Below the pieces are notes generated by a model, which saw only the letters and a program-made list of their open reading frames with translations, ran no database searches and was not told the origin of the DNA. Shown here in pieces: positions 252 to 38,335 of a DNA stretch of 64,000 nt; position 1 is the stretch's first letter, and every line of letters begins with the position of its first letter. The stretch is taken from positions 492,321-556,320 of the forward strand of contig JAJYLR010000001.1 in the NCBI GenBank assembly GCA_021787535.1, given 5' to 3'. Both the position numbers and the translations under genes were made by a program. Source of the stretch: a bacterium (GTDB lineage Bacteria > Patescibacteriota > CPR2 > UBA1875 > JAJYID01).

Positions 252-407
252 ATGGCAGATGCAACAATGGGTTACTGTGTAAAATGCAAAGAAAAAAGAG
301 AAATGCAGGATGCACAAGAAGTTACTATGAAAAACGGCCGAAAAGCTATGAAAGGTAAATGCGGCGTTTGTGGTACTGGAATGTACAAGATTTTGGGTAA
401 AGCTTAG
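252..407 (+). CDS. Small zinc-ribbon protein, DUF5679-like (51 aa; below ORF-track cutoff)
   Basis: MADATMGYCVKCKEKREMQDAQEVTMKNGRKAMKGKCGVCGTGMYKILGKA; two CxxC pairs; strong SD AAGGAGGTGA just upstream. Confidence 0.85.
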   Translation: MADATMGYCVKCKEKREMQDAQEVTMKNGRKAMKGKCGVCGTGMYKILGKA

Positions 408-426
408 GCTTAACTTTTTGAGAATT

Positions 427-490
427 TAAGAGCCTGTTCAGAGTTCCATATTGAGTTAAAATTTCAATGTAAGCTGTGAACAGGCTCTTA
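427..490. repeat. 64-bp imperfect palindrome with 14-bp perfect terminal arms (MITE-like or terminator)
   Basis: TAAGAGCCTGTTCA (427-440) and TGAACAGGCTCTTA (477-490). Confidence 0.6.
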
Positions 491-570
491 GTCCGTTTAA
501 TAAACATATTCAGAACGGGTTCTCCACCTGCACAAAAGAAAATATACTATCTCTTGATGGCATATTTTCT

Positions 571-742
571 TGGTACCGCGTACGGGATTCGAAGCGGCTC
601 AACCGCTCTTTTTATATTCGATTCCAAAACAATAAAACAGTTGAAAAATTGAGACTTTTCGTTGCTTGATTTATGCGGCTTCAGACGAGTTCTCACCCAT
701 ACACACAGAAAACTGCCAAGAAAAGGATTCTTGCCAGTTTTC
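571..742 (-). repeat. tRNA-linked unit ending in a 23-bp duplicate of the tRNA-Glu 3' end
   Basis: 571-593 is identical to 743-765; flanking motifs are shared with the unit at 37391-37569. Confidence 0.85.
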
Positions 743-819
743 TGGTACCGCGTACGGGATTCGAACCCGTGATCTCCTGGATGAGAACCAGGTATCCTAG
801 GCCACTAGACGAACGCGGC
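743..819 (-). tRNA. tRNA-Glu (CTC)
   Basis: GCCGCGTTCGTCTAGTGG...CCTGGTT-CTC-ATCCAGG...GGTTCGAATCCCGTACGCGGTACCA; encoded CCA; promoter TTGAGG-17-TATAAT at 859-831. Confidence 0.97.
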
Positions 820-844
820 ATGACCTAGAAATTATAGCAAAAAT

Positions 845-981
845 TTGCCGATCCCTCAATGATCTGCTAAAATTCATATATGATAACAAAACGATTTTTT
901 AGCTTTTTCTTCTTTACCGGTCTTGCTTAGCGGAAGATAGTTTGAAAATTGTTCATAAAATCTTCCGCAAGGAAGATTTTT
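845..981 (+). promoter_or_regulatory. Promoter plus ribosome-mediated (Phe) transcription attenuator
   Basis: TTGCCG-17-TAAAAT (845-873); 1:2 helix 892-912/933-951; 2:3 helix 926-938/960-971; 3:4 terminator AAAATCTTCC-GCAA-GGAAGATTTTT. Confidence 0.75.
880..930 (+). CDS. Phe-rich leader peptide MITKRFFSFFFFTGLA
   Basis: 6 Phe codons in a 7-codon run; ATG at the predicted transcription start; overlaps attenuator helices. Confidence 0.75.
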   Translation: MITKRFFSFFFFTGLA

Positions 982-1010
982 AGATTCCGGGGGTCAAACC
1001 CGGAATGACA
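982..1010 (-). repeat. GTCATT-tailed REP-like palindrome
   Basis: Reverse complement TGTCATTCCGGGTTTGACCCCCGGAATCT. Confidence 0.8.
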
Positions 1011-1071
1011 GGGTAGAGGAAGATTTTTTTATTTGTCATGTACCATGACTAAAGTCTAGAAAGGAGATGCG

Positions 1072-1338
1072 ATGTCATCACCGGATGAACTCATTTCCAA
1101 GCTCGATCTTATGGTGATGAGGAATGAACCTATCGACAGAAAGCTTATTACTCCTATTAAAATGGAAAGGAATTTTTCTGACCTCGATATCCAGATGATG
1201 TTCGAAAAGGCGCTCGACGGAATGTGCTGGCATGCAGATCATGGCATGCCAACCGCGGTCCTCGAATACGCTCATCTAGTCGCGCACCTAAAAAATGAAA
1301 AGGAAAGAAGGGAAGCAAAAAGCATAACTCATGCGTAG
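1072..1338 (+). CDS. Hypothetical protein (88 aa)
   Basis: SD GAAAGGAG upstream; followed by a terminator. Confidence 0.7.
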   Translation: MSSPDELISKLDLMVMRNEPIDRKLITPIKMERNFSDLDIQMMFEKALDGMCWHADHGMPTAVLEYAHLVAHLKNEKERREAKSITHA

Positions 1339-37390: not shown

Positions 37391-37569
37391 TGGCAGGGGT
37401 GGCAGGCTTCGAAGCGGCTCAGCCGCCAGTTTGCAAATACCTTATACTTAATACATTTAGCTTATTTTAGCATAAAATCAATCAATTTTCGATTTTGGCG
37501 TCTTCATAACAGTTTCTCAGCTACCACCCTACAAAACAAGAACCCCATCAAAAGATGGGAACCTTGTCT
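37391..37569 (-). repeat. tRNA-linked unit ending in a 23-bp duplicate of the tRNA-Trp 3' end
   Basis: 37391-37413 is identical to 37570-37592; motifs shared with 571-742. Confidence 0.85.
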
Positions 37570-37645
37570 TGGCAGGGGTGGCAGGCTTCGAACCCGCGAC
37601 CTTCGGTTTTGGAGACCGACGCTCTACCAACTGAGCTACACCCCT
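37570..37645 (-). tRNA. tRNA-Trp (CCA)
   Basis: AGGGGTGTAGCTCAGTTGGTAGAGC..TCGGTCT-CCA-AAACCGA..GGTTCGAAGCCTGCCACCCCTGCCA. Confidence 0.97.
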
Positions 37646-37949: not shown

Positions 37950-38207
37950 TTATCGCCATTCCCTAGATATTAGCTTCAATTTTTTTTCATGTGACCACTT
38001 CTTAGCCTGTATTTCCCTTTGTCTAGCCTCTGATTTACTGCCAAAAGGTTGCGACACATAAACTAGCTCAAATGGTCCTTGGTCTACTGCAAATTTAGCG
38101 CCATTACCAGAGTTGTGCTTTTTAATTCTCTCCACCAGATCAGTAGTCATGCCCACATATAACCTATTTGTCCTCGCTTTAGCTAAATAAATATACCATG
38201 GTTTCAT
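37950..38207 (-). CDS. Stand-alone GIY-YIG nuclease
   Basis: WYIY..LYVGMT..ERIKKHN..EARQRE..K. Confidence 0.88.
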   Translation of the reverse strand: MKPWYIYLAKARTNRLYVGMTTDLVERIKKHNSGNGAKFAVDQGPFELVYVSQPFGSKSEARQREIQAKKWSHEKKLKLISREWR

Positions 38208-38335
38208 CACAAATATTTCTTTATGGGCCTCTCGATAAACTCGAGGTCATTCGACTCTTCCAAACTCAAACCCTCCTAATTAATGATAATTCATCTAATA
38301 TCTTGGCTTGCCATGAGCGAACATAGTGAGTCGAA

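Follow-up and report, generated by a model that had tools for sequence, protein, structure and literature searches.

A 172-base unit that carries no gene lies directly 3' of the tRNA-Glu(CTC) gene on the minus strand of the window (the whole stretch of 64,000 nucleotides that was analysed); it is laid out like the tRNA-linked repeats (TLRs) of Escherichia coli and is not a member of their Rfam family RtT (RF00391). With a probability of roughly 0.45, we read it as a TLR-type, gene-less, non-autonomous single-strand mobile element in which an arm complementary to the upstream tRNA would act as a splint. TLRs are already known, and the units described here, which occur in this and other Patescibacteria, are a variant with a different core. 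A literature search that reached few subscription journals found no published account of the arm or of the Patescibacteria units.

All features of the unit are on the minus strand. The intact tRNA-Glu(CTC), recognized by ARAGORN and Rfam, occupies 743..819, with its T arm at 770-754 and the break point between R57 (762) and A58 (761). A terminator-like hairpin (708..742) abuts the CCA; it is variable, and some units of the family lack it. The arm that follows has two guide parts around a central motif. Guide part 1 (696..707, containing GTGTATGGG at 704-696) is antisense to tRNA positions 61 to about 70 (CCCGTACGC) with two G·T pairs; in the central motif TGAGAA (690..695), YGA is unpaired opposite tRNA 57-60 and GAA pairs with TTC 54-56; guide part 2 (CTCGT, 685..689) is antisense to tRNA 49-53 (ACGGG), and its sole partner outside the guide is the upstream tRNA. 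TGAAG and the left stem arm CCGC come next (675..683, with AGCCGC at 680-675), and in the window's family this partner after TGAAG changes jointly with the stem class of the right end. An A-rich, C-poor, unstructured spacer of 68 nt and constrained length (607..674) leads to the right end (590..606, with GCGGTTGAGCCGC at 606-594), a small hairpin GCGG-TTGAG-CCGC followed by TTCG, and the unit closes with a 19-nt copy of the tRNA 3' end from A58 to CCA (571..589). Behind it lies a truncated second tandem unit (509..570) with a hairpin at 570-537 and a degenerate arm, GAGAA-CCCGT, at 525-515; no right end was seen within 509..570. Just past it, 13-bp inverted repeats flank a short spacer at 428-489, a feature that looks like a small IS-derived remnant and has a variant copy elsewhere in public run X1.

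Every piece named in the preliminary description was recovered on this strand in its place, although half of the two-part arm had been overlooked. The sequence taken there as constant, TGAGAACTCGT, is in fact half variable, GAACTCGT being antisense to ACGGGTTC of the upstream tRNA. The unit is no assembly artefact, because a public contig covers 572-768 with identical sequence, at a depth of 104 against 113-117 in the flanks; the run that contains this contig is possibly the source sample.

Throughout the family the arm is ordered antisense(61-72)-YGA-GAA-antisense(49-53) after the hairpin, and is complementary to both sides of a single break in the T loop, 57|58. Pairing was counted in 34 units from the window's genome (G000) and from loci L001-L072 (L031 and L039 excluded), each having a 3' copy or right-end motif plus a YRAGAA anchor picked without use of pairing. 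Guide part 2 pairs with tRNA 49-53 at 163 of 170 positions and guide part 1 with tRNA 61-65 at 141 of 170, and the arm pairs with itself at 136 of 170, below either guide with the upstream tRNA. The central motif on which these 34 units are anchored reads TGAGAA in 24, CGAGAA in 8 and TAAGAA in 2. Over 18 distinct T stems, Watson-Crick pairs form at 57/72 and 47/72 variable positions for the two arm halves, as against 35 and 32 on average and 49 and 45 at most in 20,000 shuffles, a test that contained four misplaced anchors inside terminators and whose P values are overstated since the units are related. The earlier proposal that the arm co-varies with tRNA identity is thereby extended to both halves, each of which tracks the cognate tRNA.

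The errors in this pairing are strand-biased. At ten T-stem wobble positions each arm half always pairs with its own target strand, and four of the ten would be A·C if the arm folded as a self-hairpin. Within the 34-unit set, C-to-T changes opposite G number 25 of 142 and G-to-A changes opposite C only 1 of 130. Because the mismatches are G·T and almost never A·C, the comparison indicates that it is the sense strand that folds; strand-biased deamination may add to the bias. The bias fits RNA and DNA equally, and strand-specific folding does not separate the two.

The position of the break and the length of the unit are also held in the family. At one locus (L012) the element ends in TTCA where the tRNA has TTCG, and at another (L055) the shared stretch is only 19 nt, so the family break point is at tRNA 57|58. 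The 23-nt copy reported in the preliminary description is exact at this unit (593-571), but it consists of the 19-nt copy and the element's own TTCG; family-wide, the copy is 19 nt and the preceding TTCR belongs to the element. From GAA to the break, 25 of 29 units measure 98-110 nt and the other four 35-41 nt. Spacers (24 units) measure 62-76 nt, contain 46% A and 10% C and are mostly unstructured; -10 and -35 motifs are enriched on neither strand. A promoter within the spacer was rejected, as the promoter scan gave only the tRNA promoter and a divergent site, and captured phage DNA was rejected since the window's spacer has no phage match. Right ends vary between families, but in most of them a small hairpin precedes the break by a few bases; in the window's family the search pattern demanded this local hairpin, and its presence in the units found is circular. 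Palindromes of about 20-30 nt lie inside units at L018, L048, L056 and after tRNA-Arg(GCG) of G000, often at the right junction.

The same layout recurs behind other tRNAs, in this genome and in relatives across Patescibacteria. The sister unit noted earlier behind tRNA-Trp (37570-37645) spans 37391..37569 on the minus strand and has all of the hairpin, the TGAGAA arm (37531-37509), the right end (37426-37414) and an exact 3' copy. ARAGORN finds 45 tRNAs and one tmRNA in G000, and complete units stand behind eight of the 45: Glu(CTC), Trp, Ser(GGA), Lys(TTT), Lys(CTT), Leu(GAG), Leu(CAG) and Leu(TAA). Their 3' copy is exact in five and deviant in three, and second tandem units follow after Glu, Leu(CAG) and Ser(GGA). 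Arm-only remnants lie behind Arg(GCG) and behind several displaced copies, window 570-509 among them; an orphan hairpin with a TGAGAA arm, near no tRNA or right end, occurs on the minus strand of contig C7 near 16875. The right-end pattern was present in 7 of 61 genomes searched, comprising six of eight family members and none of 52 genomes outside the family. The left-end pattern was present in 21 of 401 Patescibacteria genomes with one control hit, part of these by chance; the matches at L029, L033, L041, L042, L054 and L057 were judged to be chance. Viral contigs gave no match to the right-end pattern, and their left-end scans gave at least 233 loci, with full flanks for 80 loci per scan. 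Among the loci listed, 11 matches resembled the arm weakly, and a 3' copy accompanied none of them. Two viral contigs of 57% GC (L091, L109) carry a tRNA-Ser, a terminator, a TGAGAA arm, a GC-rich core and a partial tRNA copy at the end, a TLR-like unit that at L091 has no RtT match. At L010:1340-1540 a complete unit has no recognizable upstream tRNA; its left flank ends in CCGCCA and its arm fits a Ser/Tyr-like T arm.

The unit folds well as RNA, in more than one way. The fold of 571-745 has a z-score of -4.5, with none of 200 shuffles equally good, and that of 571-819, tRNA included, a z-score of -7.3. The inner stem AGCCGC:GCGGTT that had been described earlier is ambiguous, the minimum-energy fold favouring the local hairpin GCGG-TTGAG-CCGC instead. 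The arm had likewise been described as pairing with the 3' copy; with the tRNA included, the lowest-energy fold, computed for DNA or RNA, sets the arm across the T arm of the real tRNA, leaving GAAT and TGA to face each other in a 4x3 internal loop, and the acceptor stem is completed by the copy. The single long hairpin with CCA at its end, proposed earlier, is a possible fold of the unit, but only one of two.

Several observations bear on movement. Relatives differ in whether a unit is present at Arg(CCT), Gln(TTG), Tyr and Trp, and similar hairpins are found behind different tRNAs. A Thermoleophilia contig (55% GC) contains a unit that belongs to the Lys(TTT) lineage of the family and has a Lys 3' copy at its right end; it sits directly after the CCACCA of a native tRNA-like fragment, and its arm fits no adjacent tRNA. 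None of 15 relatives searched matches the core of this unit, and one has the fragment without the unit. This copy suggests movement as a unit, but it may also be a chimera, being a single contig whose metagenome match is the same scaffold. In G000 the Lys(CTT) unit ends in a Lys(TTT)-type copy, and in both this case and L031 the donor's 19 nt are kept at the right end and the junction is near CCA. The Thermoleophilia and Lys(CTT) cases would fit a unit-length circle that re-enters near CCA; the relocation cases do not fit precise insertion at 57|58 and count against the simplest peel-and-paste version. Four public runs contained no circle junctions or empty sites at the level of contigs, which drop rare forms. 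A joint of 606-738 in run X1, whose intervening letters are unknown, may belong to a relative's unit.

The closest known counterparts are the TLRs, among them the 178-bp tyrT repeats (RtT) and RrA/B/F. E. coli has 22 of them, distributed over ten loci, and the last 18-19 bp of each are identical to the end of the upstream tRNA or rRNA; publications on E. coli have mentioned them since 1978, their function and origin unexplained according to the main text of PMC8144298, where 'complementar' occurs once, in a general sense. It had been argued earlier that tyrT-type repeats do not account for one scaffold tailored to different tRNAs. That argument is not borne out, as TLRs described in PMC8144298 are such a scaffold and several of them have a TGAGAA arm. 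In the tyrT and tyrV units of K-12 the antisense arm is split by TGAGAA and the copy is 19 nt long, and a TGAGAA-centred arm is present in 4 of 13 E. coli units examined (two Tyr, one Pro and one Ser, the last two of which we take to be proK and serX). Two Lys units keep guide part 2 only, and 7 of the 13, presumably four Lys and three Arg, are without such an arm in this script-based survey. The arm-bearing units are 156-181 nt long. They share with the window's unit a place directly behind a tRNA, an 18-19-nt 3' copy, tandem units, several loci per genome, one scaffold at different tRNAs, the break point, the two-part TGAGAA arm and an optional terminator. From GAA to the break they measure 82-94 nt, as against 98-110 nt in the Patescibacteria units, and the cores differ throughout: that of TLRs is GC-rich, forms several hairpins and contains the 5' half of the T arm once more as an internal sense copy, whereas the window's is A-rich and unstructured. 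C-GNA-G triloops form DNA-stable hairpins. All eight E. coli cores counted have two to four of them and the window's two cores none. The E. coli cores match Rfam RtT (36-138 bits), whereas RF00391 has no match at E<=5 in window 300-1100, and among known RNA families only tRNA passes the Rfam threshold. We read the window's unit as of one kind with the E. coli TLRs but different in its core; common descent, for which the layout and a six-base motif speak, is likely. The tyrT core matches 28 plasmid and five phage records, with no recombinase or transposase under the match among those listed. In the text of a mobilome preprint, tyrT-rttR coverage is raised and signals at RNA genes are ascribed to heteroduplexes, not circles (10.1101/2024.07.17.603846).

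A search for a co-occurring enzyme, proposed with the preliminary description, returned no consistent partner among 128 ORFs around 38 loci: GIY-YIG recurs (5 loci), with single rve, IS110 and HNH matches. The unit itself contains no integrase, a point on which the preliminary description is supported. Three GIY-YIG genes were viewed; each has its own flanks and is located outside the units. No autonomous, gene-bearing version of the element was found; L063, tried as a cargo element, was rejected, its distant repeat being a second tRNA gene. G000 itself has five GIY-YIG matches, no RVT_1 match (the genome is 97% complete), a single tyrosine recombinase that resembles the housekeeping Xer, and a frameshifted IS200-like Y1 transposase (C2:373957-374297) with its own terminal hairpins, whose ends differ by eye from those of the unit. 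Three large serine recombinases (C2:79523-81056, C4:100663-102211 and C7:32842-34381) terminate at the antisense of tRNA-Pro, -Met and -Glu or run into it, in islands with conjugation-like genes; these islands were rejected as a partner, since they stand at three other tRNAs with no link to the units. Small GIY-YIG genes at L047:870-1300, L064:30-480 and L056:1100-1525 (tRNA Cys, Lys and Asp) have the intact tRNA on one side and, on the other, a partial copy of its 5' part interrupted by a hairpin; this looks like a second kind of element that enters tRNAs, here with its nuclease gene included. In window 37968-38320 a GIY-YIG gene stands behind tRNA-Tyr, and a long hairpin region beginning right at the CCA precedes the gene; a similar arrangement with an 8-nt copy of the tRNA end is found behind tRNA-Ser(TGA).

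Among other mobile elements, IS200/IS605 (IS608) and REP/RAYT share with the unit top-strand folding, subterminal hairpins and a target just outside the left end that is read by pairing. IS608 reads its target by base pairing (PMC5934647, PMC6006769), and in an engineered form recognition can be extended by pairing between the bases on the 3' side of the left-end hairpin and target sequence 5' of the cut (PMC5934647). The unit is nevertheless no member of IS200/IS605. Of the three family traits compared, strand-specific folding is the one it has: it lacks a transposase gene (tnpA), repeats 19 nt of its target as IS200/IS605 do not, and has a guide of about 15-20 nt that is two-sided and 3' of the hairpin, where that of IS608 is a tetranucleotide 5' of it; the IS608 guide rule as given in PMC5934647, applied by hand, fails at the right end (TGAAG/TTCR). 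Tyrosine-integrase tRNA islands also combine an intact tRNA at one end with, at the other, a displaced 3' fragment that starts in the T loop, but the unit is without integrase or cargo, has a tailored inverted arm, occupies many tRNAs per genome and forms tandem decay series. Ssn GIY-YIG nucleases with their SRM repeats act on strand-specific hairpin substrates (PMC11893778, whose main text does not mention tRNA), and GIY-YIG genes occur near 5 of the 38 loci; those viewed carry their own flanking repeats and none is inside a unit. The RT gene or catalytic RNA core of a retroelement or self-splicing intron is absent from the window's unit.

Under the single-strand reading, the sense strand of the tRNA would fold as single-stranded DNA, the folded arm would splint both sides of the T-loop break 57|58, and a trans-acting nuclease or recombinase, which we postulate, would act on the splinted break. 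Excision as a unit-length circle and re-entry at the tRNA 3' end are predicted, and we infer that DNA, not RNA, is the working form and that the enzyme is a dedicated one. IS608 is the nearest working model for such a splint, and the folded single-strand site of the preliminary description is kept as the leading idea within this reading. Against it stand the missing autonomous copy, the lack of a consistent enzyme and the absence of GNA triloops from the window's cores. Alternatively, the unit could be an RNA-processing cassette, a reading we hold to be unlikely but to be taken seriously. In a refolded read-through transcript the arm would either open the T arm of the tRNA or form a helix that ends in CCA, host RNases would release a small RNA as for RtT and RrA/B/F, the cassette would spread by ordinary recombination, and selection at the RNA level would tailor the arm. 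TLRs behind 5S rRNA are transcribed and processed, with the repeat suggested by the authors to be an RNase E site (main text, PMC8144298); the strong RNA fold of 571-819, the acceptor stem completed by the copy and the G·U bias on the transcribed strand point the same way. Such a cassette accords poorly with a terminator-like hairpin before most arms and a spacer without conserved fold or promoter, and with a break point and a TGAGAA motif that persist across lineages with wholly different cores; it also leaves the Thermoleophilia copy unexplained, whose arm matches no adjacent tRNA.

Tandem duplication at tRNA ends with template-switch correction of quasi-palindromes, or an insertion scar, could have left the units as passive products with no function. 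The mis-tailored intermediates (the Lys-CTT and Leu units of G000, L001, L056, L062) and the many decayed second units would be expected of such a process, yet correction would remove the YGA loop and make no distinction between the strands, whereas YGAGAA persists in Patescibacteria as well as in E. coli, A·C pairs are avoided and lengths are tightly held; we think this origin improbable. Folded single-strand recombination sites are known from integrons (attC) and CTX-phi, and the arm might be such an attP/attC-like partner site in internally deleted tyrosine-integrase islands (attL...attR), whose att sites at tRNAs resemble the family repeat in starting at TTCRA in the T loop (PMC4383910). 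We give this little credence: no island version was found, the only tyrosine recombinase in the genome is Xer-like, identity ends at 57|58 in several units, and eight different tRNAs per genome would demand very relaxed specificity. Most improbable of all is a route through RNA, either a reverse transcriptase switching template from tRNA to element RNA at 57|58 or a trans-splicing ribozyme with the arm as internal guide. Copying a tRNA up to A58, as at retroviral primer sites, gives a copy of 18-19 nt, and the arm can align both flanks like P1/P10; set against this, G000 lacks RVT_1, the shortest cores, about 30 nt, are too small for any known splicing ribozyme, and no Rfam ribozyme matches.

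A broader conjecture, which we find rather doubtful at present, is that these units and the E. coli TLRs are footprints of one widespread programmable insertion system that crosses phyla, protein-less and served by a putative enzyme in trans, with a YGAGAA-centred two-sided guide of 15-20 nt that could be set to any target. The arm, the central motif and the break point that Patescibacteria and E. coli have in common provide a testable hypothesis for the old puzzle of the TLRs. Long-guide DNA insertion has so far been achieved only by engineering IS608; if an enzyme uses the arm for target choice, the units would represent a natural long-guide DNA insertion system.
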